From Clostridia bacterium (lineage in GTDB: Bacteria > Bacillota > Clostridia > RGIG6154): a stretch of 64,000 nucleotides of DNA. Where the stretch lies: the NCBI GenBank assembly GCA_045589295.1, contig JAZNOU010000002.1, positions 1 to 64,000 on the forward strand, in the 5' to 3' direction. Under the pieces are notes generated by a model. The model made no database searches and had not been told where the DNA came from. It was given only the letters and a program-made list of their open reading frames with translations. Made by a program: the position numbers and the translations under genes. How positions within the stretch are numbered: the stretch's first letter is position 1; every line of letters starts with the position of its first letter. Shown here in pieces: positions 894 through 21,218 of the stretch.

Positions 894-1111
894 GCGCCTG
901 TGGCGGAATTTTTTCGATGTCCCAAGAAAACCATGCGATAGCTTGTTTTATTGGTTGACAGAGATTATGCAGCGAACAAAGTGAGTCGCTGGCAGACTTG
1001 TCTGACAACTTCCGCGTCAAGCGTAATTTAAAACTTAATATGCGCCTGTGGCGGAATTGGCAGACGCGCTAGACTTAGGATCTAGTGTCCCCGACGTGAA
1101 GGTTCAAGTCC
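894..1111 (+). pseudogene. two truncated tandem tRNA-Leu copies (894-910, 5' 17 nt only; 1042-1111, lacking the 3' acceptor strand)
   Basis: near identity to the intact tRNA-Leu at 1172; both copies share the upstream flank ACTTAATAT. Confidence 0.85.
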
Positions 1112-1424: not shown

Positions 1425-1446
1425 TTGCGAAATGGAGGAATTTTTT

Positions 1447-2229
1447 ATGAAACTATATACTGAAAATTTTACGATTATACTAAACAAACATATAACTAAT
1501 ACAGAGATTGATACCTATGAATTTCGAGTGCTTTGCTATCTTCTAATGTTGTCCGATGACGATGGCATTTGCTTTCCATCATACAATACGATTGCTGAAA
1601 AAATCGGTATAGGCGAAACAAAAGCAAAGAATGCCATCAAGCATTTGATTGAACTTGGAATTATTAAAAAGACTAACCGAACAAAAGAAGATGGCAGCGC
1701 CGGTTCCAATTTATATGTGGTGTGTGAAAAGACCACTATGCAGGTCGCAGAAAAACCTGATGAGGTTGTTTCAAGTACGACCTCTTGTGTGCCTGATGAC
1801 CTACCCTATTGTTGTGAAATGAATGAGGGTTGTGTGCAAGACGACTACAATAAATACTCAAATATAAATAATAAATATTTTATTAATAACCATCTATCAT
1901 CAATAGAAGATGTGATGGATCAGGCAGAAACATATGAACTTGAAGGATTATCGAAAAAGAATTATGAAACTGCGATTGAAATTATGTTTAATTCAGAATC
2001 AATTTCAGTCTGCGGTGAAACCATTCCTCGTGAAATTGTTCGTAAACGGCTGGAAAATATCAGCTACGAGCATATCGTCTATGTCGATAACAATATGCCG
2101 AGGAAAATGGTTAATGGTAAGGTTGAAATTCAAGTCAGAAGTCCTGTTCCTTATATCGTTACAGCTCTGTATAATGCATTGCGTTATACCGCAGATGAAA
2201 TTGTCAGAATGGAATATGGTGACGGATAA
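1447..2229 (+). CDS. replication initiator-like protein (N-terminal HTH, C-terminal DUF6017-like domain)
   Basis: CFPSYNTIAEKIG...AIKHLIELGIIKK HTH; C-terminal IPREIVRKRL..EHIVYV..YIVTALYNA as in ICE RepA proteins; GGAGG RBS. Confidence 0.75.
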   Translation: MKLYTENFTIILNKHITNTEIDTYEFRVLCYLLMLSDDDGICFPSYNTIAEKIGIGETKAKNAIKHLIELGIIKKTNRTKEDGSAGSNLYVVCEKTTMQVAEKPDEVVSSTTSCVPDDLPYCCEMNEGCVQDDYNKYSNINNKYFINNHLSSIEDVMDQAETYELEGLSKKNYETAIEIMFNSESISVCGETIPREIVRKRLENISYEHIVYVDNNMPRKMVNGKVEIQVRSPVPYIVTALYNALRYTADEIVRMEYGDG

Positions 2230-2451: not shown

Positions 2452-2769
2452 ATGAAAGACAACAGAAGAAGAGATATGACATTGACGATAAGAGTTACGG
2501 AGAAAGAAAAGCAATATATAAAGAAGCGTGCTAAAAAAGCAGGCCTCTCTACCACAGATTATATAGTCAGACTTTCTCTCGAAACACCTATATTTATTCC
2601 GGTTAATATGCAACCGTTTTTGTTAGAACTCAAGCGCATCGGAAACAATATTAATCAGCTTACAACAAAGGTAAATTCTAAGGTTTTTTCGTCGTATAAC
2701 TTCTGTGAATTTATCGATGCAATTGAAAAATTAACTGAACGAATAGGTGACGTTGGGAGGAGAAATTGA
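2452..2769 (+). CDS. mobC: MobC relaxosome accessory protein (RHH)
   Basis: TIRVTEKEK N-terminus and ELKRIGNNINQL motif; stop overlaps the relaxase ATG. Confidence 0.92.
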   Translation: MKDNRRRDMTLTIRVTEKEKQYIKKRAKKAGLSTTDYIVRLSLETPIFIPVNMQPFLLELKRIGNNINQLTTKVNSKVFSSYNFCEFIDAIEKLTERIGDVGRRN

Positions 2770-4298
2770 TGGCAATATTAGTTGCAATTCGTTCAACCAA
2801 ACAAAGCCCGAGTGCAATGCGCGGACTCATCAATTACTGTCTTCAGGAGAAGAAAACTTTTGATATAAATTCAGGTAGAAAACTTATCACCGGAGTGAAC
2901 TGTGTCCCTCAAAATGCTTACACTGAATTTATGACAACCAAGGCAGTATATCATCAAGAGAGAGGAGTTAATTTTTATCACTTCTCTCAATCGTTTTCTC
3001 CCGAAGAAAAAATCACACCTGAAGAGGCGCATGAGGTAGCGATTGAGTTCGTAAAGAAAGCATGGCCAGGGCATGAAGTTTTAGTTTGTACACACATGGA
3101 TGAACCTCATTTACATTCAAATATTGTTGTTAATTCTGTAAATTTTAAGAACGGTACAAAGCTTCATTTATCACCCAACTCTCTCAAAGCTCTGCGAGAT
3201 TTAAATGACGAGGTTTGCAAAAGTCATAACCTCTCTGTACTTCCACCTTATCAAAAAGGCCGCAAGGGTATGTCTACAAGAGAATACCGAGCTGCCGAAA
3301 AAGGTCAGAGCTGGAAGTTCAGGCTTATGAGTGATATTAAATATGCGATGGAACGAAGCGGTAACCGTGAACAATTTACAAAAGAAATGGCAAAACAAGG
3401 ATACGAAATGAGGTGGACAGATGAAAGAAAAAATATAACTTTCACTTGTCCGAACGGAATGAAGTGCAGAGATATTAAACTGCATCATGATAAATTTTTG
3501 AAGGAGGCAATTGAAAATGAGTTTAAGATCAGAGAACAACTTACAAATGGATTCCAAACTGAAAGAATTAATGGAGAAGAACTCGAGGAATATGACGGAG
3601 TACGACAACAGCCAAGTGGAACTGAGAGTATATTCCATACCGGAGAAACAGAGGTCAACGGAACTGAAAATGATACAGGATATGATAGAATTCCAACCGG
3701 AGCTGTACATGCTAATAAAGACTCTGGCTACGAAAACAGAGATATCGAATATGTCGAAAGCGATGCTACAGAATCTGCTGAACGAGAACCGGAGTATCAT
3801 GAGCAACCTGACATCAACGAATGCAGTGACGGTAGCGAAGATGGAGAATTTGTTGCAACAGGATGGGAACGAGAGAGACAAGTATATTTCGAAATTCTCC
3901 GAAACCCTGGATACCGAGGCAACGAAATTGAGCAAACTGACGAGCAATTTAGAGAAACACCTGTGGAAGTTCCTGGGGATATCGGTAGGAGCGGCAACAT
4001 TATTCTCGACGTTGGTGTCGGTACTCTTACAGCTGTGGCTTCGCTGATGGATAACGACCAAGACGATGATCCGGAAGAAAAGAAAAAGAAACTCGATGCC
4101 AAGGATGCAGGTTCAAATGTTGGGTTTACATTAGGTAGTGCCATAGGTCTTGCGGCTGCACTTATAGCGAAGAGCAAAAAGCAAGATGAGGACATAACCG
4201 AAACCCCGATAGAAGAACCTGACAAGGTAGAAGATATCAACAACGAACCATACGAAGAAAGTGAGGATTTAGATGAAGGTTTCAAGTTGGAGATGTAG
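2769..4298 (+). CDS. MOB_P relaxase/mobilization nuclease
   Basis: INYC (Tyr motif I), YHFSQSFSP..ITPEEAH, THMDEPHLHSNIVVNSV. Confidence 0.92.
   Translation: MAILVAIRSTKQSPSAMRGLINYCLQEKKTFDINSGRKLITGVNCVPQNAYTEFMTTKAVYHQERGVNFYHFSQSFSPEEKITPEEAHEVAIEFVKKAWPGHEVLVCTHMDEPHLHSNIVVNSVNFKNGTKLHLSPNSLKALRDLNDEVCKSHNLSVLPPYQKGRKGMSTREYRAAEKGQSWKFRLMSDIKYAMERSGNREQFTKEMAKQGYEMRWTDERKNITFTCPNGMKCRDIKLHHDKFLKEAIENEFKIREQLTNGFQTERINGEELEEYDGVRQQPSGTESIFHTGETEVNGTENDTGYDRIPTGAVHANKDSGYENRDIEYVESDATESAEREPEYHEQPDINECSDGSEDGEFVATGWERERQVYFEILRNPGYRGNEIEQTDEQFRETPVEVPGDIGRSGNIILDVGVGTLTAVASLMDNDQDDDPEEKKKKLDAKDAGSNVGFTLGSAIGLAAALIAKSKKQDEDITETPIEEPDKVEDINNEPYEESEDLDEGFKLEM
3517..4047 (+). CDS. nested overprinted gene inside the relaxase (+1 frame): coiled-coil protein with a C-terminal TM helix (MobB-like)
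   Basis: AAGGAGG at 3501-3507, 9 nt before ATG 3517; 176-aa open frame; hydrophobic C-terminus. Confidence 0.7.
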   Translation: MSLRSENNLQMDSKLKELMEKNSRNMTEYDNSQVELRVYSIPEKQRSTELKMIQDMIEFQPELYMLIKTLATKTEISNMSKAMLQNLLNENRSIMSNLTSTNAVTVAKMENLLQQDGNERDKYISKFSETLDTEATKLSKLTSNLEKHLWKFLGISVGAATLFSTLVSVLLQLWLR

Positions 4299-4452
4299 CG
4301 ATAAGCAAGTAAGAGAACACACAAGGTTTAGATTGTTGTGTAACAATAGCACTTGACATCCCACCTTTTCATCATAATTACATCAACAGTCGGCAATCCC
4401 ACTCAAATGAGCCTAAAAATTTGAAAAAATTTATCTATTTTTAAAAAATACC

Positions 4453-4481
4453 TTGTAATTTGGGTGGAAATATGTTACAAT
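4453..4481 (+). promoter_or_regulatory. sigma70-type promoter of the HD operon
   Basis: TTGTAA-17-TACAAT with extended -10 TG. Confidence 0.6.
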
Positions 4482-4648
4482 ACCACTGTATCATATTTTT
4501 TTGAGTATCAAATTTAAGTATTTTGAATATAATTTAAATAGGATATGAAGATTGCAGTACCTAAGAAAGTAGGCAGATATAAGTTCCTACCGAGGGAAAT
4601 AAAATGACCCCTCGTTGGGTTTATTTTATTTTTAGAGGTGTATCAGAG

Positions 4649-5068
4649 ATGTATTCGAGTGAAAAGATTTTCATAATGAAGTTTCTTGCAGGATTAAAAA
4701 AGTTGGGAATTACAGAAATTCCTTATGACAATGATGATTTTTACAGAGGTGCCGAAAGCATGCAACAGTATTTTCACCTTAATAGGAATGTGCTTGGAAG
4801 CCATGCAAATGAATTGTCAATGTTGTTTTTAAAGAAACCTATGGGTGGAACTTTTTTTGAATTTAGAGAAGGAATTGCAAGACAAAACGGAAGTTTGATG
4901 TCTTTCGAAAATCCTCATTATATAAGTGCGACAATAAAACTTGATGAAATAGGTGCAAATTTCATCCTGGATCAAGATAATCTTGATATTTCACGTGAGC
5001 AGATATTAGGTTTTTCTAAGGCTTTTTGTGAAGGTGCTGAAATTGATTACGAAAATGCGGGGATTTGA
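4649..5068 (+). CDS. hypothetical 139-aa protein, partner of the HD/PRTase gene (possibly winged-helix-like)
   Basis: GAGGTG RBS before ATG 4649; stop 2 nt before the next ATG. Confidence 0.7.
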   Translation: MYSSEKIFIMKFLAGLKKLGITEIPYDNDDFYRGAESMQQYFHLNRNVLGSHANELSMLFLKKPMGGTFFEFREGIARQNGSLMSFENPHYISATIKLDEIGANFILDQDNLDISREQILGFSKAFCEGAEIDYENAGI

Positions 5069-5070
5069 TA

Positions 5071-7806
5071 ATGAGATTCATAGATATTTTTAATTCGGAA
5101 CAATGTAAAGATTTGTATCAAAGCGTCAACCAGTTTTCTTCAGATTGTTTAAAACAGTATAATGACGAGATTGAGTCTTTGGGCTTTAATTTTAAGTCCA
5201 AAGACATTTTTGATTATGTATGGGGAACGGTGGAACTTAGTGCTGTAGAAATATGTTTAATTGATAGTCCATTAGTTCAAAGATTGCGAAACATAAAACA
5301 ATTGGGTTTTGCACATTATGTGTATTGCAATGCTGATTATAGTAGGTTCGCACATACTATTGGAGTTATTGAAATCGCAGGAAGAATGTCTAAAATGATT
5401 ACTCGTAATCTTAAACAGGCAATTCCAAATAAGGACAAATTTAACATGGAGGAAGTTGTTAGATTAGCAGCTTTGTTTCACGACAGTGGACATATGTTTT
5501 ATAGTCACGTTTCAGAAAGGTTTTTTACTAACAATAAAAATTATGATGGAATTGAACAAACAACCGGAGCACTTACCTACTTCAACGAGCAAATTTCAAC
5601 AAGGGCATCTTTGCATGAAATGTTAAGTGTTATGCTTGTTAATTCAAATGAAGTACATAGATTTTTTTCATTAACTGCAAAACATCTGAATAATTCCAAA
5701 ATCTTAAAATCTGAAGAAGTAGATATTCTCATTGATTATATATCAGGTTTAATTGTCGGAACAGCTGTGGATAAAAGTATTTTACCATATTCTATGATTA
5801 TTAAAGGTGCAATCGACGCAGACCGCATGGATTATTTGTCTAGAGACTCAAGTACAACTAAGGTTCCTCTTGCAGTGGATATTGGAAGATTAATAAATAA
5901 AATAACGGTTGTAAAAATTAATAATTACCAGCCTTCTAATGTTTGGAATGATCACTCCGAAGAAGACTACCCATATCAGAGTATGGCTATACAGTATTCT
6001 GCACAGAGATTGATTTGGCAGTTATTTATGGCTCGTTCAATTTTGTATCAAAGTATTTATTTTCACCATAAAAAATTAACTGCAGAATCAATGCTTAGAC
6101 AGGCTTGTGAAAATATTTTTCAGCTAATACCTGAAAAAAGTCATGATTTCTCTTATATTATGTCTTTGGATGATTGTGCTTTAAGTGAACACTTTGTTGA
6201 TATAATTATTCCAGACAGCCTTCAAAATGATACAAAATGTAAAAATGCACAAGACATTATTAAGCGCATTAAAAACCGTAATTTATATAAACGAGTAGCA
6301 AGTTTTTCTCAGGATATTCTTGATTCGGTACCCAACTATATATATGAAAGTTTTGTTACTAATGTTATAGAAAATCCTTTTTCTACAACATATTCCGAAT
6401 TTCTAAGAGAGTTGACTGATGAATATTATGTGGTTTTACAAAATTTGGGGAAAGCAAAACCAGAACATCAACCAATATTTATGTTTATTGAAGCAAATTG
6501 GAAAAATGAAATGTCAGATGATATACCTATCGACTTTGGTAACGCCCCATACAAAATGTCTTCACAGGTGTTTAAAGAAACGCCTACTTTTGGTGAAGAA
6601 AACCGCCAAAAACAATATTATTTGGTGACTGATCAAATTGAACGAGACTTAGTGTATATAGCTTTAGAAAAAATTTTGTTTTCAAAGTATAATATTAAGA
6701 TTAACGAAGGCTCCTCAACGTGTGCAAAATTTACAAGTGAGCAAATTGCCAAGACAAAATCGGAACTATTCGAGCTAAATTACTATAAAGATTCATTGGT
6801 ATTATTACCCGATAGAATTGTGAGAAATTTATATAATCGTAGGACTTTTTCAAATATAGTTTCCAAATACCAAAGTTTTTCTGGTGTTAGAGGATCTAAA
6901 GTGACAGAGCAATCTCTATTTGATTATCTTAAACAGTTCTTGTTGGTACCATGTACAAAAGATGAAATCAAACATTTATTAAACGGTGTTTTATCTCTTC
7001 TAGCACAAGCAACCTTTATTGATAGAGATTACTTTTCTGAAAAAGGGTCTGCACTTTTAAAACAGGTTTTACAAAAAGGGTATGAAAATAATTTGATGGT
7101 TAAATTAGGAGGAGCTTTTGACAGCGCCAATAGATTAACATATTATTTTAATGATATAGCTGAAAAGAGTGAATTCCGTTTTGTCGAAACTGTACCAGAT
7201 GCATTAAAATTATCTAGCGATTCTCCTGAAAAAAGTTGCATTGTCTTTTTTGATGATGGTGCTTATTCAGGAAAACAAGTTGTATCAATTTTCCAGGAAC
7301 TTATGGGAGTTCCTATTGAAGAGAGAGAAACGGATGAAATACATACAAAAGAATTGGATCCATCAAGCAAAGAGTTAATTAAATCATCAAAAATTATTCT
7401 TGCTTATATATGTTTTAATAAGATGTCCGAGAAAATCATATTAAAAAAATTGTCAGATTTAGGAATAGAAAATGTAGAGATTGTTTTTGAGCAAGATCTG
7501 TCTAACAAGATTTTTTCTGATACTTCAACAGTTTTTTCAACTATGGAAGAACGTGATATAGTTCACACAATGTTAAAAGATATCGGTTATCAGGTTCAAA
7601 AATCATCTAAATTACAAGAAGATGGGACATATACATCACGCTGGACCGAAGAACGTATTCAGGACGCTTCTTTAGGATATAATGATGCTCAACAAACTGT
7701 AATTTTTGAATTCAACGTACCGACATACACATTAACACCGTTCTGGCAAAATGGATACTATAATAAAAATGCGTGGAAAGGACTTTTTCAAAGAACAGAA
7801 AAATAA
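5071..7806 (+). CDS. HD-superfamily dNTP triphosphohydrolase-like domain fused to a C-terminal PRTase-like (PRTase-CE type) domain
   Basis: QRLRNIKQLG, SRFAHTIG, LFHDSGH..YSH, DADRMDYLSRDS, IYFH; C-terminal VFFDDGAYSGKQ, LGY..., NVPTYTLTPFW, WKGLFQR. Confidence 0.85.
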   Translation: MRFIDIFNSEQCKDLYQSVNQFSSDCLKQYNDEIESLGFNFKSKDIFDYVWGTVELSAVEICLIDSPLVQRLRNIKQLGFAHYVYCNADYSRFAHTIGVIEIAGRMSKMITRNLKQAIPNKDKFNMEEVVRLAALFHDSGHMFYSHVSERFFTNNKNYDGIEQTTGALTYFNEQISTRASLHEMLSVMLVNSNEVHRFFSLTAKHLNNSKILKSEEVDILIDYISGLIVGTAVDKSILPYSMIIKGAIDADRMDYLSRDSSTTKVPLAVDIGRLINKITVVKINNYQPSNVWNDHSEEDYPYQSMAIQYSAQRLIWQLFMARSILYQSIYFHHKKLTAESMLRQACENIFQLIPEKSHDFSYIMSLDDCALSEHFVDIIIPDSLQNDTKCKNAQDIIKRIKNRNLYKRVASFSQDILDSVPNYIYESFVTNVIENPFSTTYSEFLRELTDEYYVVLQNLGKAKPEHQPIFMFIEANWKNEMSDDIPIDFGNAPYKMSSQVFKETPTFGEENRQKQYYLVTDQIERDLVYIALEKILFSKYNIKINEGSSTCAKFTSEQIAKTKSELFELNYYKDSLVLLPDRIVRNLYNRRTFSNIVSKYQSFSGVRGSKVTEQSLFDYLKQFLLVPCTKDEIKHLLNGVLSLLAQATFIDRDYFSEKGSALLKQVLQKGYENNLMVKLGGAFDSANRLTYYFNDIAEKSEFRFVETVPDALKLSSDSPEKSCIVFFDDGAYSGKQVVSIFQELMGVPIEERETDEIHTKELDPSSKELIKSSKIILAYICFNKMSEKIILKKLSDLGIENVEIVFEQDLSNKIFSDTSTVFSTMEERDIVHTMLKDIGYQVQKSSKLQEDGTYTSRWTEERIQDASLGYNDAQQTVIFEFNVPTYTLTPFWQNGYYNKNAWKGLFQRTEK

Positions 7807-7817
7807 TTTTTTAATCA

Positions 7818-7846
7818 GGTTGTGCCTTGTTGGGTACAACCTTTTT
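7818..7846. terminator. terminator between the HD gene and the convergent small ORF
   Basis: AGGTTGTGCC-loop-GGTACAACCT plus T-run. Confidence 0.7.
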
Positions 7847-7855
7847 ACTATCTTC

Positions 7856-8008
7856 TTATGACAACTTGTCCTTTTTTATCCTAATAAAGAAATTCCAAGG
7901 ACGAATCACTTCAATATGTAAGTCGACCACATCAGGCTTACACAACATACATATTGTAATTATCAAAATCATTATAATCAAAGCAAGTCCTAAAACAATT
8001 AGAATCAT
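7856..8008 (-). CDS. 50-aa single-TM peptide (type I toxin-like), absent from the ORF track
   Basis: MILIVLGLALIIMILIITICMLCKPDVVDLHIEVIRPWNFFIRIKKDKLS; AGAGGT RBS; alternative in-frame ATG at 8026. Confidence 0.6.
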   Translation of the reverse strand: MILIVLGLALIIMILIITICMLCKPDVVDLHIEVIRPWNFFIRIKKDKLS

Positions 8009-8171
8009 AATACAACCTCTTTTCATTTGTGATATTTCTAATAATATTAGATGCTATTTTTCCAAAGTATTTCCAAATGGCTGATAATATCTTTAATTTC
8101 GTCTTTATTAGATATTCAAAAAAATAATTTCAAAAAAATTTTAGTATCATGCCGTAAATTTTCCAAAATCA

Positions 8172-8200
8172 TTGAAAAAGGAAAATTTTTGTGCTATAAT
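8172..8200 (+). promoter_or_regulatory. sigma70-type promoter of the NRPS operon
   Basis: TTGAAA-17-TATAAT with extended -10 TG. Confidence 0.8.
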
Positions 8201-8205
8201 TGTTA

Positions 8206-8393
8206 TGCTATATACTTACATTAAAATGGGGTAAGTATAATTGTTCACCACAAGGTGTACGCTAAATAGGTAAAAGCGTACACTCTGACGATCTAAACTT
8301 TGTGGTGAAGATATGTAAGTGTATAGCAACCTTATGTCAGAGTTAGTGCGTTTTTCGGTGCATAGCTCTAAAAACACGGGTTATGCACTTTTT
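8206..8393 (+). ncRNA. structured 5' leader/attenuator upstream of the NRPS
   Basis: three nested helices, an 8-bp long-range pairing, and mutually exclusive terminator/antiterminator hairpins. Confidence 0.65.
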
Positions 8394-8444
8394 AATTAAG
8401 TTAAAAACAATTTATATACAACTTTTACGGAATGAGGAACGACT

Positions 8445-11400
8445 ATGTACCATTTAACAAAACCTCAAAAGTTAATATACGATATGGAAAAATACGCAGG
8501 CGGTAGCATTTCCAATGTCTGCGGTAGTATTGTTATAAAAGGAGAAAAGGACATTTCTGTGCTGACTAATGCAGTAAATGAACTCTATCGTCTTAATGAT
8601 GCACTCCGTATCAGAATAACTGAAACAGACGGTGTTCCGTTCCAAACAGTTTCAGAGTATAAGGAACAGAAAATCAATGTGCTTCACTTTGCAGACAAAG
8701 AGGAGCTTAATTCTTATGCTGAAAAATATGCAAAAGAACCGATGGACTTTTATGGCTCTCTTTGCGAAATTAATGTAATTTTGTTAAATGCTGGCTATGG
8801 CTTACTTGTAAAATTGCATCACATAATCAGTGATGCCTGGACTTTATCTTTAATCGGTTCTCAGTTTAATACCCTTGCGAACGGTGAAATACCGGAGGCC
8901 TATTCATATCTAGACTACATACCAGCCGAACAAGATTATTTCAATGGAAAACGCTACCCTAAAGACAGAGAATATTATATAGAACAGTACAAAAAATGCG
9001 ATGACATCACATACATAAGCGACAAACAAGTTAAGTCTTATGTTTCAAACAGAAAACATTTTCTTGTTGATGAAGAAAAAACTGCTAAAATACAAAACTA
9101 TGCAAACGAGCATAAAACCTCTGTTTATATGCTCCTTATGACTGCACTTGGTACATATATAAACAGAATCAAAATGAACCAGGAAAAGTTTTATATCGGT
9201 ACCGCTATTTTAAATCGTACTAATGCCCAAGAGAAAAACACTATGGGTATGTTTATCAATACCGCTCCGGTGTTAATGGAACTTGATAATGAAAAAACTT
9301 TTTCTGAGAATTTAAGAGCAATTTCAAAAACTCTTTTTGGCATTATAAAACATCAAAAATTCAACTATGGCGAAGTACTTGAAACTCTCCGCCATGAATT
9401 TGATTTTTCAGGAAACCTTTATGATGTTATGCTTAGTTATCAGAATGCAAAATTCACTGGAATTGACACAGATTTTGAAAGTGTGTGGTACTGCAATGGT
9501 ATGCAGACGGAAAGTTTGCAGATGCATATTGATGACCGTGATAGTGAGGGTATCTTAAAAATTCACTATGATTATCAAGTTGAGAAATTTACAGAAAAAG
9601 AAATTGAAAGAATGCATGAGCATATATTCAATCTTCTTTTTGATGCTATAAATGAAGACAAACAAATAACTGAACTTGATATCTTATCTGACAAAGAGAA
9701 AACTACTCTCTTATGTGATTTCAATGATACAAAGGCAGACTACCCGAAGGATAAGTGTGTTCATCAGTTGTTTGAGGAACAAGTCTCGAAAACACCAGAT
9801 ATGACTGCTGTTATTGCTTGTGATAAAACTCTTACTTATGAAGAATTAAATAAACTGTCAAACAGAATTGCAAATGGTTTAATTAGAAACGGAATAAAAC
9901 CAAATGATACGGTTGCTTTTTCTATGTCAAGAAACAGTTTGATGATAGCCACAATGTTAGGAGTATTAAAAGTGGGCGCAGCCTATATGCCGCTTGACCC
10001 TAATTACCCACAAGATAGAATTGACTTTATGGTTAAAGATAGTAATTCAAAATTGTTGATTACAGATAGAAACATCGAAGATTACTTATCCTTTGAAGAA
10101 AGTTGTCCTATAAACAATATTTCTTCTGATGATAATTTTTGTATATTACACACCTCTGGTTCTACGGGTACACCCAAGTGCGCAGCTATAAAGCATAAAA
10201 ACATGGTAAACTTCATATACTCGAACCAATTTCTTTTAAGTAATATTGATAGCATCATAGCCATTAATATAATTACATTCGACGTGTTTGAAATGGATAC
10301 AATTTTTTCTATTGTTTCTGGAAAGCCTTGCATTCTTGCAAGTGAAGAACAGCAATTTGTTCAAAGTGAATTTGAGAAAATGATGAAACAATATAAGAAT
10401 TGTTTGTTTTGGGCGACACCTACTAAGATGCTGAATTATATTAATAATAGTAAAAACAAGGAGTTTGTGAAAAACATCAATTGTTATGTTGTCGGCGGGG
10501 AAATTATTACTCCTGAATTATTAGATACTGTAAGAAAATACAATGATTCTATCACGATTTATACAGTATACGGACCAACGGAAACTCTTATATATTCTAC
10601 TTTAACAGATGTTTCTAAAACAAATGATATAACTCTTGGTTTGCCAATAGCAAATACACAAATATATATAGTTGATAAATCAAATGCCATTGTACCTATT
10701 GGTGCTACTGGTGAACTTTGCATTGCAGGAGACGGAGTTGGTGCAGGCTATTTAAACAGACCTGAACTGACTGCAGAAAAGTTTATAGATAATCCCTTTG
10801 GAGAGGGTAAATTATATAAAACTGGAGACCTTGCATACTGGCGAGAAGATGGAAAAATCGCCTATGTAGGAAGAAATGATTTTCAGGTTAAGATAAGAGG
10901 TCTTAGGATAGAGCTTGGTGAAATTGAAAGTGCAATAGATTCTGTGGAGGGTGTTTCACAGGCAGTTGTTGTAGTACGCAAAAACGCAAGCGGAAGACAG
11001 CTTATATGTGCTTTCTACACTGAACAGACACCGGTTAATATTGCTGATATTAAATCTGCAATTTTATCAAAACTCCCTAAATATATGATGCCCCATATAT
11101 TTACTGTTCTTCCTGAAATGCCTTTAACTCCGAGTGGGAAGATTAACAGAAAGGCATTGCCCGAAATAGATTTAACAAATATATCTAATGAGGTTGAATT
11201 CGTAAAACCTCAATCAGAAATTCAAAAAGAACTTGCTAAACTTATGGAAAAGGTTATAAATTATTCACCCGTTGGACTGAATGATGATTTCTTTGACCTT
11301 GGTGGAGATAGTTTAAAGGCAATTGAATTTGTATCAAAGGCGCACAGTGAGGGTATCTATTTCAACTTACAGGCAGTATTTGATAACCCCACCCTTAAAG

Positions 11401-12662
11401 GTCTTTGCGAATACATAGAAAATGATGATAAAGAGCAAATATCTTTTAAAAATTCAGACTTTTCACAAATCAACGAGGTGCTTAAAAAGAACACATTGGA
11501 TAATGTGTCTGTACCGACAAAATGCGAGGTTGGGAATACATTGTTTGCAGGTGCAACCGGATATTTAGGTATGCATATTTTGGCAGATTTTCTTGACAAC
11601 GATAATGGTATTGCATATTGTCTTGTGCGTGGAGCGGACAAGCAGACAGCAAAAGAACGACTGACTAATTTATTGGAATTTTACTTTAGAGATAAGTATG
11701 TTAATTCAGAGAGAATTGTTGTACTTTGTTCCGACTTGCAGAAAGAAAACTTTGGTTTATCAAATGAAGAGTATAATGAGTTGATTAAGAATGTCAAAAC
11801 CGTTATAAACACCGCTGCAAGTGTTAAGCATTACGGTTCATACAAATATTTTTATGAAACCAATGTTGAAACAGTAAAAAATCTGATTGCTTTTTGTAAA
11901 AAAGCAGATGCAAAACTCATTCATACATCTACATTGAGTGTGTCCGGCAACAGCTTCGGTGATGAATTTGACGGATATATCAGTGATACAGAAAAGCATT
12001 TTTACGAGAGTAGTTTATACATTGAACAACCTCTTGAAAATGTTTACGCAAGAAGTAAGTTTGAGGCTGAGAAAACAATTCTTGAAGAAATGTCAACCGG
12101 ACTTAAAGCAAACATCATGCGTATGGGTAATCTGACCAACAGACTCGAAGATGCCAAGTTCCAGAAAAATCACGAATCTAATGCATTTTTAAATAGAATG
12201 AAAGCAATTTTAGATTTAGGAATATTCCCTGAATATCTTATGGATTTGTATCTGGAATTTACCCCTATTGATGATGCTGCGAGTGCGGTTATGGCAATTG
12301 CAAGACATTTTAGCACAGAGCAAACAGTGTTCCATATTAACAGTATCAAGGTTATGTATATGGACAAGGTTTTAGAATGCTTTAAAAAGTGCGGAATTGA
12401 TATGAAAGTTGTTGATGCCACTACATTTACAGAGGTTTTAAGAAGCACAGCAAAACAAAGTGGAACAGAATACATCTTCGAAACCTTTATCAATGATATG
12501 GATGAAGACGATAAACTTAACTATGATAGTAACATCCGTATTGAAAATGATTTTACTGTCGAGTATTTAAGAAAACTTGGCTTTGAATGGTCTGATATTG
12601 ATTTTGATTATATAAAGAGATATATTGAATATTTTAGAAACATTGGGTATTTGGAGGTGTGA
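8445..12662 (+). CDS. monomodular NRPS, C-A-T-R (terminal thioester reductase)
   Basis: HHIISDAW (C); TSGSTGTPK, YGPTE, YKTGDL, SGKINRK (A); FFDLGGDSL (T); GATGYLG and YARSK (R). Confidence 0.96.
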   Translation: MYHLTKPQKLIYDMEKYAGGSISNVCGSIVIKGEKDISVLTNAVNELYRLNDALRIRITETDGVPFQTVSEYKEQKINVLHFADKEELNSYAEKYAKEPMDFYGSLCEINVILLNAGYGLLVKLHHIISDAWTLSLIGSQFNTLANGEIPEAYSYLDYIPAEQDYFNGKRYPKDREYYIEQYKKCDDITYISDKQVKSYVSNRKHFLVDEEKTAKIQNYANEHKTSVYMLLMTALGTYINRIKMNQEKFYIGTAILNRTNAQEKNTMGMFINTAPVLMELDNEKTFSENLRAISKTLFGIIKHQKFNYGEVLETLRHEFDFSGNLYDVMLSYQNAKFTGIDTDFESVWYCNGMQTESLQMHIDDRDSEGILKIHYDYQVEKFTEKEIERMHEHIFNLLFDAINEDKQITELDILSDKEKTTLLCDFNDTKADYPKDKCVHQLFEEQVSKTPDMTAVIACDKTLTYEELNKLSNRIANGLIRNGIKPNDTVAFSMSRNSLMIATMLGVLKVGAAYMPLDPNYPQDRIDFMVKDSNSKLLITDRNIEDYLSFEESCPINNISSDDNFCILHTSGSTGTPKCAAIKHKNMVNFIYSNQFLLSNIDSIIAINIITFDVFEMDTIFSIVSGKPCILASEEQQFVQSEFEKMMKQYKNCLFWATPTKMLNYINNSKNKEFVKNINCYVVGGEIITPELLDTVRKYNDSITIYTVYGPTETLIYSTLTDVSKTNDITLGLPIANTQIYIVDKSNAIVPIGATGELCIAGDGVGAGYLNRPELTAEKFIDNPFGEGKLYKTGDLAYWREDGKIAYVGRNDFQVKIRGLRIELGEIESAIDSVEGVSQAVVVVRKNASGRQLICAFYTEQTPVNIADIKSAILSKLPKYMMPHIFTVLPEMPLTPSGKINRKALPEIDLTNISNEVEFVKPQSEIQKELAKLMEKVINYSPVGLNDDFFDLGGDSLKAIEFVSKAHSEGIYFNLQAVFDNPTLKGLCEYIENDDKEQISFKNSDFSQINEVLKKNTLDNVSVPTKCEVGNTLFAGATGYLGMHILADFLDNDNGIAYCLVRGADKQTAKERLTNLLEFYFRDKYVNSERIVVLCSDLQKENFGLSNEEYNELIKNVKTVINTAASVKHYGSYKYFYETNVETVKNLIAFCKKADAKLIHTSTLSVSGNSFGDEFDGYISDTEKHFYESSLYIEQPLENVYARSKFEAEKTILEEMSTGLKANIMRMGNLTNRLEDAKFQKNHESNAFLNRMKAILDLGIFPEYLMDLYLEFTPIDDAASAVMAIARHFSTEQTVFHINSIKVMYMDKVLECFKKCGIDMKVVDATTFTEVLRSTAKQSGTEYIFETFINDMDEDDKLNYDSNIRIENDFTVEYLRKLGFEWSDIDFDYIKRYIEYFRNIGYLEV

Positions 12663-12664
12663 AA

Positions 12665-14230
12665 ATGAAAAAGAACAATACTATTAATGTAATTCTAAAA
12701 ACATTGGCTTTGCTTATCCCTATAATGACAGCAGGGTTTGTTATTTATAACCAATTTTCTACACGTCAAATGTTCTATGAATATGAACAAGGGATTATAA
12801 AAGTTCTTTCAAATTTAAAAGACTCTCAAATTATTATAGATGAAAATTTAAAGAATGAAATAGTTATAGAAATTCAGAAATTGGTCAACAACGATTTAAA
12901 AGTATCAATGGATTTGTTGATAGGTCTATTTGGTATAGTTATATCCGTCTGGGTAGGACTTAATGTTTACAATATTCTAAAAAAAGATGATTTGGATGAA
13001 TTAGCATCAAGAGTTGAGACTACAATTGATGGGTTCGATTGTGATTTGTACAAAAACAAACAATTGCAAACTGCATATCTCTGTAAATCTTTCGACATAG
13101 TAGACAATTCTTCCTATTATTTTAATAAAAAAATTAACATTATGGATGTGCATGCAATTGAGTATGAATTCGTACTAAATGCTATTTTAATTGAGCACTC
13201 TTATACTAAACTGCGAAATTTATATAAACATAATAATTATATGAAAATGGATTTGTTTGTTGACCAAGGAATTGAACATTGTGAAAATGTATTAAAAGCT
13301 AAAGAATCATCTCTTCAGACATCTCCTAAATTTTTTAAGAGTTATGCTATACAAAACAATTTTATTAGCGGATATATTAATTATCGTTATGGCGACTTTT
13401 TATATTTTAAAGCTATGAAATTATATTATGGCAATAATAAAAGAGATTTAGCATTTGAGCACTTCAAACAAGCGATTGATAGATATATATCAGCCTTAGA
13501 ATATGATACAGAATTGGCACAAAGAACAGATATTTATAATATGATAGGCTTTATATATATTAAAATGTATGATTTTGCAAACAATCAAACAAAATATCAA
13601 TCCGAAATGGACGATTGGCGACAAAACGCTCTTTATTTCTGTGAATTGGCAAGTAAAAACACTATAAACAATGCTGTTGTCGTTAAAAATCTAGGTATAG
13701 CTTATGAAAGAAATGGAAATCTTGAAGAGGCCTTAAAAAAATATTTAGAATCGGTAGAAATAGATCCTTATAACTATAAATCAAGACTTTGTCTTGCTTC
13801 GGCATATATTAAACAAGCTCAGAATATACTTGGTATTTCAAAGGAGCGCGATAAATTATTATGCAATTTTATTTTTTCAGACGAGCAAATACAAAAGGCA
13901 ACGGCTTGGCTGGATAAATCAGAATCACAAATTGAACATCTAAAAAGAATTGATTCTAAACTTATTGATGCATATTACAAAGAAGGTGAAATTTTAACAT
14001 ATAGGTATCTCCTTTCAAATAAAAGAGCAAAACTTGCAAAACGTGCATTTCGTTGTTTTGAAATAGCTAATACATTCAACACGACATTTCTTGCCCACAA
14101 ATTTCACGAGCGTAATTTCTATGAGGCACTTGGAAAAATTGATAGAGCTAAAGAAATAAACTCAATTCTAAGCGGAGCAGATGTATCGCACATAGAAAAA
14201 CTATATAATAAAAAGGCGACAAATCCGTGA
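12665..14230 (+). CDS. membrane-anchored (2 TM) tetratricopeptide-repeat protein
   Basis: two hydrophobic N-terminal segments; TPR-like NLGIAYERNGNLEEALKKYLESVEIDP; GGAGGTG RBS inside the NRPS end. Confidence 0.8.
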   Translation: MKKNNTINVILKTLALLIPIMTAGFVIYNQFSTRQMFYEYEQGIIKVLSNLKDSQIIIDENLKNEIVIEIQKLVNNDLKVSMDLLIGLFGIVISVWVGLNVYNILKKDDLDELASRVETTIDGFDCDLYKNKQLQTAYLCKSFDIVDNSSYYFNKKINIMDVHAIEYEFVLNAILIEHSYTKLRNLYKHNNYMKMDLFVDQGIEHCENVLKAKESSLQTSPKFFKSYAIQNNFISGYINYRYGDFLYFKAMKLYYGNNKRDLAFEHFKQAIDRYISALEYDTELAQRTDIYNMIGFIYIKMYDFANNQTKYQSEMDDWRQNALYFCELASKNTINNAVVVKNLGIAYERNGNLEEALKKYLESVEIDPYNYKSRLCLASAYIKQAQNILGISKERDKLLCNFIFSDEQIQKATAWLDKSESQIEHLKRIDSKLIDAYYKEGEILTYRYLLSNKRAKLAKRAFRCFEIANTFNTTFLAHKFHERNFYEALGKIDRAKEINSILSGADVSHIEKLYNKKATNP

Positions 14231-14826
14231 TCGTTGTGTATTTATGCAAGGTTAATGTTAATATTGTCGAGGAGAACTTTTCATCTTTTCTAAAAGTTGT
14301 TTCCGTTGCCAAAAAGAAACGCATCCTTAAACAAAAAGAACAACAAAATGCATGCAATATGCTTATTGTTGAAATTCTTGCAAAAGTAGTTATTAAGAAA
14401 ACTTTTGGTATTGATATTGCACAACAAGAATTTGCTTATACAGAATACGGAAAACCATATCTGCTCAATTATCCCAATGTTCATTTTAATATAAGCCATT
14501 CGGGAGAATATGTTGCATGTGCAGTGTCCAATAAACCCATCGGAGTTGATATTCAAAAGATTGGAAAATACGATCCGGATGTTGCAAAAAGAGTTTGCAA
14601 TGAAAAAGAACTCGAACAAATTGAGAATAGTTCTGATAAAGCGTCCGAATTTACAAAGCTCTGGACACAAAAAGAGGCAGTCCTTAAAATGCATGGAACT
14701 GGTATTACCGGTGGCAACATAAAAGACTGTCTTGATAATCATAATGTTAAATCAGAAAGAATTGAAGATTATTGGATAAGTGTATGTGCGAATATTTCAA
14801 CAAAATACAGAAATGAGGAGCAGTAA
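14227..14826 (+). CDS. Sfp-type 4'-phosphopantetheinyl transferase
   Basis: YGKPYL, FNISHSG, IGVDIQ, LWTQKEAVLK. Confidence 0.95.
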   Translation: MIVVYLCKVNVNIVEENFSSFLKVVSVAKKKRILKQKEQQNACNMLIVEILAKVVIKKTFGIDIAQQEFAYTEYGKPYLLNYPNVHFNISHSGEYVACAVSNKPIGVDIQKIGKYDPDVAKRVCNEKELEQIENSSDKASEFTKLWTQKEAVLKMHGTGITGGNIKDCLDNHNVKSERIEDYWISVCANISTKYRNEEQ

Positions 14827-19586: not shown

Positions 19587-21218
19587 ATGTCAAACCAAGA
19601 TTATGATTTAACACTATTATATTGCAGATTATCACGAGAGGATGCGCTTGAAGGTGAAAGCAACAGTATAGAAAATCAGAAAAAGATTATCTTGAAAGTT
19701 GCTCAAGACAATAACTTTGAAAATTTAGTGTTCCTGCAAGACGATGGTTACTCTGGCACAAACTTTGACCGGCCGGATTTCCAGAAAGGGTTGAAGTTGA
19801 TGGAAGAAGGTCGAGTTAAGAACTTTATTACAAAGGATTTGTCAAGACTTGGCAGAAACTATCTAGAGGTAGGAATGTACACAGATGTCATTTTCCCGAA
19901 GTATAATGTTCGCTATATTGCTGTTCAAGACAATTACGATTCAAACAATGTCGAAAGCAATGACCTTGCACCATTTGTGAATCTGTTTAACGAATGGTAT
20001 CCCAAGGAAACATCAAAGAAGGTTCGTGCTGTTTTCAAGTTCAAAGCGGAACGTGGAGAACGAGTAAGCTCACAAGTGCCTTATGGCTACGCAAGAGATG
20101 AAAGCACACCCATTGGTTCCAAGAAATCAATTAAACTTGTAATTGATGAAGAAGCTGCAAAGGTTGTAAGAGAAATCTATAGATTATGTGCAAGCGGATT
20201 GGGACCTACATATATTGCCAATATTCTCAAAGAGAGAAAAATCCTCAAACCATCAATGTACGGCTATGAGAAAACCGGAAAGTACGGCGCGTCTACAGAT
20301 GTAACGGAACCTTACGCTTGGAACGATAGAACAGTAGCAGGAATTCTTGATAATGAGGTATATATTGGAAATACAATAAATCTTAAGGGCACTACAATTT
20401 CGTACAAGAACAAGCAGAGAATACAAAGGCCTGAAGAAGAATGGATTCGTGTCGAGGGCACTCACGAAGCAATCATAGATATGGATACTTGGAAAGTCGT
20501 CCGAAGGGTTCGTGAAGGCAAGCGAAGAAGAGATTCCATGGACGAGATTAACAAATATGTTGGACTTTTGTATTGTGCAGACTGCGGTAATAAGTTATAT
20601 TTCGTCAGAGGTAAAACTCTAAGCCCGGATGCATTTCACTTCATTTGCAGCAGATATAGAAAACACAGAGGCGAAGAACAATGCACACCTCATTCTATAA
20701 GGGAAGCTGTTCTGGACGAAATCATCCTTGAAGAAATCAGGAGAATTACCTACTTTGCCAGAACAAAGACGAAGGAATTTGCTGAGTTTATAAACCAAAA
20801 AACCTCTGCAGAAAGCCGAAAAGAATTATCGGCAAAATCAGCAGAGTTTGGCAGATTAACAAAGCGAGAAGGAGAATTAGAGTCTTTATTCAAGCGTGTG
20901 TATGAAGACTATGTTTCGGAGAAGATAACAGAGAAGCAGTTTCAGATGTTGTCAGAGAGTTATACGGCGGAGCAAAAGGAACTTCAAATTCGCATTCCTG
21001 CGTTGGGAAGTGAAATTGACACCTTGAAATCTGCAACCACAAACACAGAGAAGTTTGTATCCTTGGCAAAGAAATATGTGCACATCAAGGAACTGACTCC
21101 TGAAATATTACTGACCTTCGTATCCAAGATTGTTATACACGAACGAAGTGAAAAAAGGTCTAAAAGTGCTACTCAGCGAATAGACATATACTTCACTCAC
21201 ATAGGACAAGCCTGTTAA
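19587..21218 (+). CDS. large serine recombinase (TnpX/TndX-like: resolvase, recombinase, Zn ribbon, DUF4368)
   Basis: YCRLSRED, SNSIENQ, DDGYSG..FDRP, KDLSRLGR, CADCG, QRIDIYF. Confidence 0.95.
   Translation: MSNQDYDLTLLYCRLSREDALEGESNSIENQKKIILKVAQDNNFENLVFLQDDGYSGTNFDRPDFQKGLKLMEEGRVKNFITKDLSRLGRNYLEVGMYTDVIFPKYNVRYIAVQDNYDSNNVESNDLAPFVNLFNEWYPKETSKKVRAVFKFKAERGERVSSQVPYGYARDESTPIGSKKSIKLVIDEEAAKVVREIYRLCASGLGPTYIANILKERKILKPSMYGYEKTGKYGASTDVTEPYAWNDRTVAGILDNEVYIGNTINLKGTTISYKNKQRIQRPEEEWIRVEGTHEAIIDMDTWKVVRRVREGKRRRDSMDEINKYVGLLYCADCGNKLYFVRGKTLSPDAFHFICSRYRKHRGEEQCTPHSIREAVLDEIILEEIRRITYFARTKTKEFAEFINQKTSAESRKELSAKSAEFGRLTKREGELESLFKRVYEDYVSEKITEKQFQMLSESYTAEQKELQIRIPALGSEIDTLKSATTNTEKFVSLAKKYVHIKELTPEILLTFVSKIVIHERSEKRSKSATQRIDIYFTHIGQAC

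Follow-up and report, generated by a model that had tools for sequence, protein, structure and literature searches.

This study concerns a two-gene operon in a 64,000-nucleotide (nt) stretch of DNA, hereafter the window, from a Clostridia bacterium (GTDB lineage Bacteria; Bacillota; Clostridia; RGIG6154; GenBank assembly GCA_045589295.1, contig JAZNOU010000002.1, positions 1 to 64,000 of the forward strand). Two open reading frames (ORFs) on the same strand fill positions 4649-7806 and are separated by an intergenic gap of 2 nt. They encode a small protein of 139 amino acids (aa) and a large protein of 911 aa, for which sequence comparison and structure models point to a SAMHD1-type HD module fused to a phosphoribosyltransferase (PRTase) domain of the PRTase-CE family (features and coordinates in Table 1). 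A preliminary description, made from the sequence alone, had proposed this pair as a candidate defence system of an HD-type deoxynucleoside triphosphate (dNTP) hydrolase with a PRTase-like C-terminus. Its two adjacent ORFs were borne out, and the HD, phosphoribosyl pyrophosphate (PRPP)-loop and tail motifs that it quoted are all in place. It had also described the pair as a separate promoter-terminator unit, which agrees with a promoter-like site upstream and a terminator-like hairpin downstream, and as part of a mobile element, which agrees with the Rep-like, NikA, relaxase and serine recombinase genes around it. Its further claims of a SAMHD1-type HD domain, a PRTase-like domain and a true two-gene unit are upheld by the results below, and structure models of both proteins and of their complex, as it had proposed, predict that the two bind each other. 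Two features absent from that description are added here: an RNA in the 5' untranslated region (UTR) that resembles the L10 leader of ribosomal protein operons, and a sister family with a different C-terminal domain.

The HD module carries the motifs RFAHT (residues 92-96), FHDSGHMFYSHVSE (136-149) and IDADRMDYLSRD (248-259). In an alignment of 29 homologous sequences, down to 23% identity, residues H95, H137, D138, H141, H146, E149, D249, D251, D254, Y255 and R258 are invariant. The metal-ligand set H...HD...D is complete and aligns to the motifs of 2hek and fungal SAMHD1, and both the extra catalytic histidine and acid beside the HD motif (HDxGHxxxSHxxE) and the DxDKxDYxxRD segment are present. 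Pfam assigns HD to residues 92-258 (E 3.1e-07) and HD_assoc_2 to residues 318-415 (E 1.7e-10), and NCBIfam gives a dGTPase match only, far below threshold. The profile of the 29 homologs, compared with the PDB, matches Aquifex 2hek (E 4e-44), fungal SAMHD1 (2e-40) and human and mouse SAMHD1 (about 1e-37). The AlphaFold model of the large protein is confident (predicted local distance difference test score, pLDDT, 90.2; predicted template modelling score, pTM, 0.80), and fold comparison with VIA aligns its residues 41-550 to human SAMHD1 (7ujn_A) with a Z of 32.8 and an rmsd (root-mean-square deviation) of 3.7 over 426 residues. VIA likewise matches 2hek_B (Z 30.7) and EF1143 (2o6i_A, Z 30.5), covering model residues 36-555, while Dgt-type dGTPases and CloA reach Z values of 13-17 only (CloA 9p8s_A, 14.9). 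By sequence and predicted fold, the HD part is a SAMHD1/EF1143-type dNTP triphosphohydrolase. It shares the whole catalytic core of these enzymes, with H..HD..D and the neighbouring His and Glu intact; unlike SAMHD1, the window protein has an extra N-terminal helix, a C-terminal extension of roughly 350 residues and an obligate small partner, and lacks a SAM domain.

The C-terminal extension contains the motifs VFFDDGAYSGKQ (residues 725-736), LGYND (868-872), NVPTYT (882-887) and WKGLFQR (902-908). It matches Pfam PRTase-CE (PF24390) over residues 628-908 and model positions 29-253 of 253, with an E of 3e-26 and 93.3 bits against a cut-off of 27 (97.2 bits in the search of the whole genome), and the PADLOC model PRTase_III-A, which describes a retron PRTase, matches the large protein with an E of 4.3e-18. 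In VIA comparisons, residues 651-880 align with the uracil PRTases 1vst_A and 1i5e_B (Z 8.6, rmsd 3.0-3.2, 125-128 residues aligned) and the same region with HPRT and OPRT (Z 7-8). Since these Z values are middling, the assignment to the type I PRTase fold also rests on the Pfam match. Across the 29 sequences D728, D729, S733, Q736, G839, L868, G869 and Y870 are invariant, as is the form of the PRPP loop, hhhhDDxxxSGxQ. In the tail, G869-x14-P884 is present with both residues conserved, followed by TYTLTP, compared with the NNxP of the retron motif Gx14PNNxP. Because the active-site residues, both the HD ligands and the PRPP loop, are invariant, both domains look catalytically competent. We infer from the sequences that the large protein converts dNTPs to deoxynucleosides and triphosphate and uses PRPP.

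The nearest described relatives of this domain are retron proteins, for which, as for all papers cited here, we follow the available portions of the text. In a SPIRE-based retron survey, several type III-A subtypes have a PRTase-CE family domain as their commonest neighbour, which is PRTase-CE itself near type III-A1 retrons and PRTase-CE_3 near type III-A3 (the Eco11 type) (PMC13712802). In Retron-Eco11 the PRPP loop VVILTDTIGSGNQ is needed for defence and activation of the PRTase lowers PRPP by about 50%; retron PRTases often travel with a winged-helix protein, encoded downstream or fused (PMC12746101). Judging from those portions, the window protein has in common with the retron III-A PRTases the loop form hhhh-[TD]D-xxx-SG-x-Q and, of the tail motif, the Gly-x14-Pro part. 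It differs from them in that the PRTase is fused behind a dNTPase and in having an acidic small partner that is encoded upstream and shows no detectable relation to PADLOC or Pfam models. A retron at this locus was rejected: no RVT domain was found in the 11 ORFs scanned between positions 156 and 15903, and no retron RNA is among the Rfam matches in 4250-8500.

The small protein has no family in Pfam, NCBIfam, PHROGs or PADLOC, and a Pfam scan of all 44 members of the partner family found no family common to more than one member. Its AlphaFold2 (AF2) model is confident (pLDDT 93.7), and VIA returns weak winged-helix matches (ORC/Cdc6, STAND ATPases and kleisin-binding proteins) at Z values of at most 6.0, a range that the tool calls common. 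Further searches returned a best E of 0.039 with a profile against the PDB and 0.77 with Foldseek against the PDB, nothing in BFVD at E<=0.001, and in the Atlas only unnamed clusters, scoring 0.91 at best. Relatives are nevertheless numerous, with 556 at E<=1e-3 and 218 at E<=1e-10 among 1.84 billion cluster representatives; among the 150 listed, almost every one is a stand-alone protein 125-150 aa long. The computed isoelectric point (pI) of the window protein is 4.9, and the family is mostly acidic (pI below 6 in 32 of 44 members, median 5.0), which argues against a classical DNA-binding repressor.

The pairing of the two genes is conserved. For this comparison, 80 genome loci were fetched by the large protein (numbered L001 onwards where a number is needed) and the partner was sought with an iterated hidden Markov model. 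In 65 of the 80 loci the gene immediately upstream, on the same strand, is a partner homolog; where the full fusion of HD and PRTase-CE is present, this holds for 53 of 55. The two fusion loci without it are L064 and L079, and the contig of L079 stops 226 nt upstream. Paired loci span Bacillota, Actinomycetota, Acidobacteriota, Planctomycetota and Pseudomonadota; the small gene and the large gene are a conserved two-gene unit. We also modelled the small protein in complex with a fragment of the large protein, residues 1-600. The interface score ipSAE is 0.90 (median of 3 runs), compared with 0.00 for the best of 3 controls; 58 of 80 solved complexes attain this mark, as do 2 of 110 mismatched pairs, counts that are approximate here since our own alignments were used. 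The partner has a pLDDT of at least 87 in the complex, at least 88% of the contacts agree between runs, and the predicted interface on the HD module comprises residues 154-178, 231-232, 283-289, 304, 414-440 and 479-502. Among the predicted contacts are those of large-protein residues 165-178 and 421-440 with residues 54-74 and 97-111 of the small protein. The model thus supports binding of the small protein to the HD module of the large protein.

An Rfam scan of positions 4250-8500 gave one notable match, the L10 leader (RF00557), directly upstream of the operon and ending at the Shine-Dalgarno sequence of the small gene. It scores 36.4 bits with an E of 0.002 (1.4e-4 in a 301-nt search), short of the gathering score of 44. 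When all RF00557 matches in the 1.54-Mb genome are ranked, the window leader comes second, after the true rplJ leader, which scores 63.2 bits and is followed by rplJ and rplL. The copy in the window differs in location from a canonical L10 leader: it precedes the small partner gene, the rplJ leader of the genome lies elsewhere, and it is therefore an ectopic copy. Four of five other homologous loci scanned also have RF00557 matches before the small gene (L007, 59.7; L004, 51.7; L011, 44.5; L008, 41.0 bits), the first three of them above the gathering score; in L003 the motif is seen by eye, with no RF00557 match at E<=0.1. The shared core has the form UACC..AGACAG-helix-CCGAGG. In a metagenome scan with the exact shared 17-mer, 80 loci had DNA to inspect: the motif precedes an rplJ homolog in 37 and a small-partner gene in 6, and the remaining 37 are of other or unclear kinds; an HD gene is in view in five of the six with the small-partner gene.

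Several observations suggest that this RNA is maintained in the operon. Among operon leaders the flanks of the core are 86-89% identical, the inner hairpin 53-57% and the upstream flank 36-42%, and the encoded proteins share only some 45% identity. At one stem position, where the native leader pairs C with G, the operon leaders have U-A, or U-G in L011. In a maximum-likelihood tree built from 39 full-length proteins, all 7 leader-bearing rows group together in one clade of 9 with support 100/99; the other two rows of this clade are without a leader. Overall, apart from the window, 6 of the 65 genome loci with a partner have the leader. By these sequence criteria, it is a clade-specific feature under selection. 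The 3' flank of the site (GAGGGAAGG) doubles as the ribosome-binding site in most relatives, at 6-10 nt upstream of the ATG. The site is followed in the window and in L160 by a hairpin and U-run, the attenuator layout also found in the genome's own rplJ leader; the window copy thus resembles the rplJ-rplL leader in conserved core and in site-plus-terminator layout, and differs from it in standing before an operon that is non-ribosomal and horizontally mobile. Folding of single sequences fails to recover the Rfam L10 structure (z -2.13 for the window leader, +0.21 for that of L007), and the call of an L10 leader rests on covariance-model scores and conservation, not on folding energy. Our own covariance model, R1, adds absence information only, because it found its source loci, a weak match to the native leader (17 bits, E 0.45) and no other genome locus. 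Homology with the native leader suggests that the stalk complex L10(L12)4 would bind the operon leader.

The second feature absent from the preliminary description is a sister family of 10 loci (L041, L046, L049, L056, L059, L061, L067, L068, L076 and L077), with proteins of about 750-830 aa. These keep the N-terminal helix and the whole HD module (hhalign over residues 14-558, E 1e-77) and also have the small partner upstream, and their C-terminus is a different domain of about 250 residues. For this domain, five members gave no Pfam match at E<=0.1, and there was no PDB sequence match outside the HD part. It carries an invariant GGxxD...V-E-N-K pattern (TDLIL...VENK motif) that is reminiscent of PD-(D/E)xK nucleases, and an Atlas search links it weakly to PDDEXK_9 (on 12% of one cluster, score 0.78); the domain may be nuclease-like. 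Because the sister family swaps the C-terminal domain, the partner and the HD module together suggest a reusable platform; such a pattern, a constant platform whose C-terminal domain can be exchanged, is typical of conflict systems. In addition, four copies of the large gene look broken: L002, L021 and L026 are split by a stop or frameshift and L014 has an internal deletion of about 250 residues. These may reflect decay of a costly gene or assembly errors.

We then compared the pair with described systems. In Clover, the dGTPase CloA is restrained by the nucleotidyltransferase CloB, and dNTPases, single-gene dGTPases included, act as anti-phage effectors (PMC12265719, in its available portions). 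The window pair is similar in having two genes and an HD dNTPase effector that its partner may restrain. Clover itself was rejected: the window partner is small, non-enzymatic and winged-helix-like, with no nucleotidyltransferase, and CloA is a distant fold relative, at the Z value given above. Judging from the accessible text, PRTase domains also serve as toxins or effectors that disturb nucleotide metabolism in ShosTA/PsyrTA (PRTase toxins of ShosTA, PMC11961720) and in Ophion, whose OpnC is another defence PRTase (10.1101/2025.09.30.679545). The partners in those systems are DprA-like, radical SAM or PHP proteins and none of the PRTases is fused to an HD domain, which sets them apart from the window pair, and at E<=0.01 neither protein has a match to a ShosT or PsyrT model of PADLOC. 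Membership in any system listed in PADLOC was rejected as well, the small protein having 0 matches and the large protein domain-level matches only; no PADLOC model describes HD-PRTase-CE with a small partner. PRTase domains of phage and plasmid polyvalent proteins are discussed by Iyer et al., 2017 (PMC5512222, as far as its text was available). In the literature, we found no paper that describes a fusion of HD and PRTase, the small partner of such a fusion or an L10 leader in front of genes other than ribosomal ones, although a listing in a supplementary table, for example that of the DefensePredictor paper, is possible. The analogy with the Bacillus pair ywfO-ywgA, drawn in the preliminary description, found no support: the literature on ywgA/ywfO gave nothing usable, and the small protein is without a Pfam family.

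The distribution of the pair is sparse. Among 399 genomes sampled from the class, 4 have the partner gene, the window's own genome included, and none of the 17 other family genomes searched has it, 3 of which belong to the same genus; the small protein has no match in phage collections. In the window, the pair sits on an integrative mobilisable element (Table 1). A direct repeat of the 3' end of tRNA-Leu was sought downstream and not found, so that the extent of the element, roughly 20 kb from tRNA-Leu to the serine recombinase, is a guess. For 56 homologous loci, we scanned the two called ORFs closest to the pair on either side, leaving out as near-duplicate or very short L017, L032, L033, L035, L040, L047, L052, L060 and L072. 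A credible defence gene lies within these two genes in 15 of the 56: TIR-SLOG (L005), SoFic (L009 and L027), IetA and IetS of IetAS (L011), PDC-M62A/B with SIR2-NB-ARC (L012), SLATT (L016), PDC-S01 (L021 and L076), McrBC (L024), WYL (L026), Drt3b (L048), PtuB (L049), ZacB (L056), a type I methyltransferase (L058) and PifA (L077). Matches discounted as non-specific were ABC-ATPase (L004, L022), tRNA-methyltransferase-like (L001) and HtrA-like (L031). The 15 of 56 is a raw count, and an enrichment of defence genes is suggestive only. Thirty-seven of the loci were also searched with Pfam, and 9 of these adjoin transposase, integrase or replication genes. Beside the pair, the 56 loci share no third conserved gene.

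Table 1. Features of the two-gene operon and its surroundings in the window (positions are those of the window).
Feature	Position	Strand	Evidence and remarks
Sigma-70-like promoter candidate, TTGTAA-17 nt-TACAAT with extended -10 TG	4453..4481	+	Consensus scan, 9/12 positions; consensus match only
L10 leader-like RNA (RF00557)	4542..4639	+	Rfam covariance model; core 4550-4605; hairpin and U-run about 4589-4632
Terminator-like site within leader	4606-4621		Followed by T-run
Small partner gene, 139 aa, acidic, winged-helix-like fold, invariant Asn88-Pro89	4649..5068	+	No known family; ATG 4649, TGA 5066-5068
Large gene, 911 aa	5071-7806	+	ATG 5071, stop 7804-7806
Large protein residues 1-555: N-terminal helix (1-40) and SAMHD1/EF1143-type HD module (41-555)	5071..6735	+	Pfam, PDB profile, VIA; predicted partner docking surface
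Helical linker, residues 556-650	6736..7020	+	AF2 secondary structure
PRTase-CE domain (residues about 651-911) and stop codon	7021..7806	+	Pfam PF24390, PADLOC, VIA
Intrinsic terminator-like hairpin closing the operon	7817..7842	+	11 pairs, 5 G-C, then T-run; 11 nt past stop
Copy of the tRNA-Leu(tag) 5' part	1038-1111		74 nt, 97% identical; 130 nt upstream of intact gene
tRNA-Leu(tag)	1172-1255 (also given as 1168-1255)		Precedes mobile genes
Rep-like HTH_36 protein	1432-2229		Upstream of pair
NikA	2452-2769		Upstream of pair
Relaxase	2766-4298		Upstream of pair
NRPS, TPR and phosphopantetheinyl transferase genes	8445-14826		Next to operon; see text
Two overlapping ORFs, 355 and 317 aa	14836-16828		No family, no PADLOC match
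Large serine recombinase	19587-21218		About 12 kb downstream of pair

Other genes and RNAs were recorded along the way. Next to the operon lie a single-module nonribosomal peptide synthetase (NRPS; C-A-T-reductase, 1405 aa), a tetratricopeptide repeat (TPR) protein overlapping the NRPS stop and an Sfp-type phosphopantetheinyl transferase, which form a small NRPS cassette on the same mobile element, aldehyde- or alcohol-releasing. The shorter of the two overlapping ORFs beyond this cassette has a weak Swt1-like HEPN match (E 0.011), and the ORF pair may be another conflict-type pair. Near homologous loci, Rfam matches (L003 1357-1457 and 4055-4103; L007 999-1100; L004 58-235; L008 7972-8355) comprise pemK RNA twice, a DUF3800-XI RNA, a group II intron fragment and a tmRNA gene. 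The DUF3800-XI RNA lies about 500 nt upstream of the L003 operon, and the tmRNA gene, a common integration site, adjoins the L008 copy.

Taken together, we give an even chance to the reading that the pair is an undescribed two-gene nucleotide-depleting defence or abortive-infection module on a mobilisable element, leader-gated in one clade, as the sequences and models suggest. A defence role is plausible from the rarity of the pair, its variable contexts, the defence neighbours and the domain swapping, and by analogy with retron PRTases, Clover and ShosTA it would most likely work by nucleotide starvation. More specifically, the SAMHD1-type HD domain would cut dNTPs to deoxynucleosides and triphosphate, and the PRTase-CE domain, of the retron type, would consume PRPP, the precursor for remaking nucleotides. 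Encoded on the same transcript, the small acidic winged-helix-like protein would bind and regulate the HD module, whether by holding the enzyme inactive as an inhibitor or by serving as the sensor of a trigger. In the window's clade, the free stalk complex L10(L12)4 would repress the operon through the leader RNA, by attenuation in the window and by covering the ribosome-binding site in most relatives. It is conceivable, and on balance quite improbable, that this ribosome feedback circuit is itself the infection sensor: the stalk complex would silence the mRNA through the captured rplJ leader, and phage shut-off of host expression or ribosome production would shift the free stalk pool, so that the complex is made and dNTPs and PRPP collapse.

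Several points weigh against the defence reading, and some of them suit another, which we consider unlikely, namely that the pair is a growth-coupled nucleotide-pool enzyme that trims dNTP and PRPP pools together with ribosome synthesis through the L10 leader, with the small protein as an allosteric subunit. A ribosomal protein leader in a well-supported clade fits such growth-coupled housekeeping control at least as naturally as immunity, and the window's own leader stays below the gathering score. The genome contains no second SAMHD1-like gene, so a metabolic role is possible, and the solved bacterial relatives 2o6i, 2hek and 2q14 are ordinary cellular proteins. Of the 56 loci, 41 have no recognised defence gene within two genes, and housekeeping functions are frequent among the neighbours (EF-G/EF-Tu, MetRS, HPr kinase, pyruvate kinase, DXP synthase, LigA). 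Phage and plasmid collections hold no full-length relative of the large protein, with HD-part matches to other HD proteins only; the PADLOC dGTPase model matches marginally (E 1.3e-3) and so does Cas3-HD; and the PRTase domain could be a ligand-binding regulatory domain, with no second effector. On the other hand, the scarcity of the partner gene in the class and family is ill-suited to a core function, the pair is on a mobilisable element here, and outside this pair the PRTase-CE family is known from effectors of retrons. The sister family has exchanged the C-terminal domain, some copies are broken, and the leader on which growth coupling depends is confined to the window and the few partner-bearing loci counted above.

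The pair could also be an addiction module similar to toxin-antitoxin systems that stabilises the mobile element, the enzyme being the toxin, the small protein a labile antitoxin and any effect on phages secondary. A small upstream gene 2 nt from a large enzyme, a confident complex model, the mobilisable element and the precedent of PRTase toxins in ShosTA (PMC11961720, within its available text) would all suit it. We still judge it rather improbable: many chromosomal copies are flanked by housekeeping genes and have no mobile gene among the two nearest on either side, neither protein matches a toxin-antitoxin family, and the partner, from a mostly acidic family, is of no detectable DNA-binding autorepressor type. 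This reading overlaps strongly with defence, from which it is hard to separate by sequence. Within the defence reading, and with no weight apart from it, there is a small chance that the PRTase-like domain is a sensor of a ribose-5-phosphate ligand (PRPP, a nucleotide or an alarmone) that switches the HD dNTPase on. SAMHD1-type enzymes are nucleotide-regulated, the PRPP loop is conserved but has Q736 where classical enzymes have Thr, and one fold neighbour, 5vog_A (Z 7.6), is a PRTase-like protein solved with ppGpp. Against a sensor, the sister family replaces the domain with an unrelated, nuclease-like-looking one, which suits a swappable effector better. Moreover, the SGxQ loop is the same as in the Retron-Eco11 effector, where the available text reports that loop mutations abolish defence and that activation lowers PRPP (PMC12746101). 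The preliminary description had suggested that the PRTase domain may make or sense an activator; this found no support, the studied PRTase of the related retron III-A3 being described in the same text as an effector that depletes PRPP.

Destruction of dNTPs, by SAMHD1, bacterial dGTPases and Clover, and draining of PRPP, by retron PRTases, are each known as means of starving a virus; new here is their predicted combination in one polypeptide together with a dedicated partner of a new family, which would offer a compact system for asking how a cell keeps a dangerous enzyme silent. Ribosomal protein leaders have been thought of as private switches of ribosomal operons. Here a copy has been kept nearly unchanged before genes whose proteins have diverged as far as noted above. 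Capture of the leader would show that such RNAs can couple foreign genes to the status of the ribosome. If the reading is true in which the ribosome feedback circuit serves as infection sensor, this would be the first ribosomal protein autoregulatory RNA recruited by a mobile defence system.

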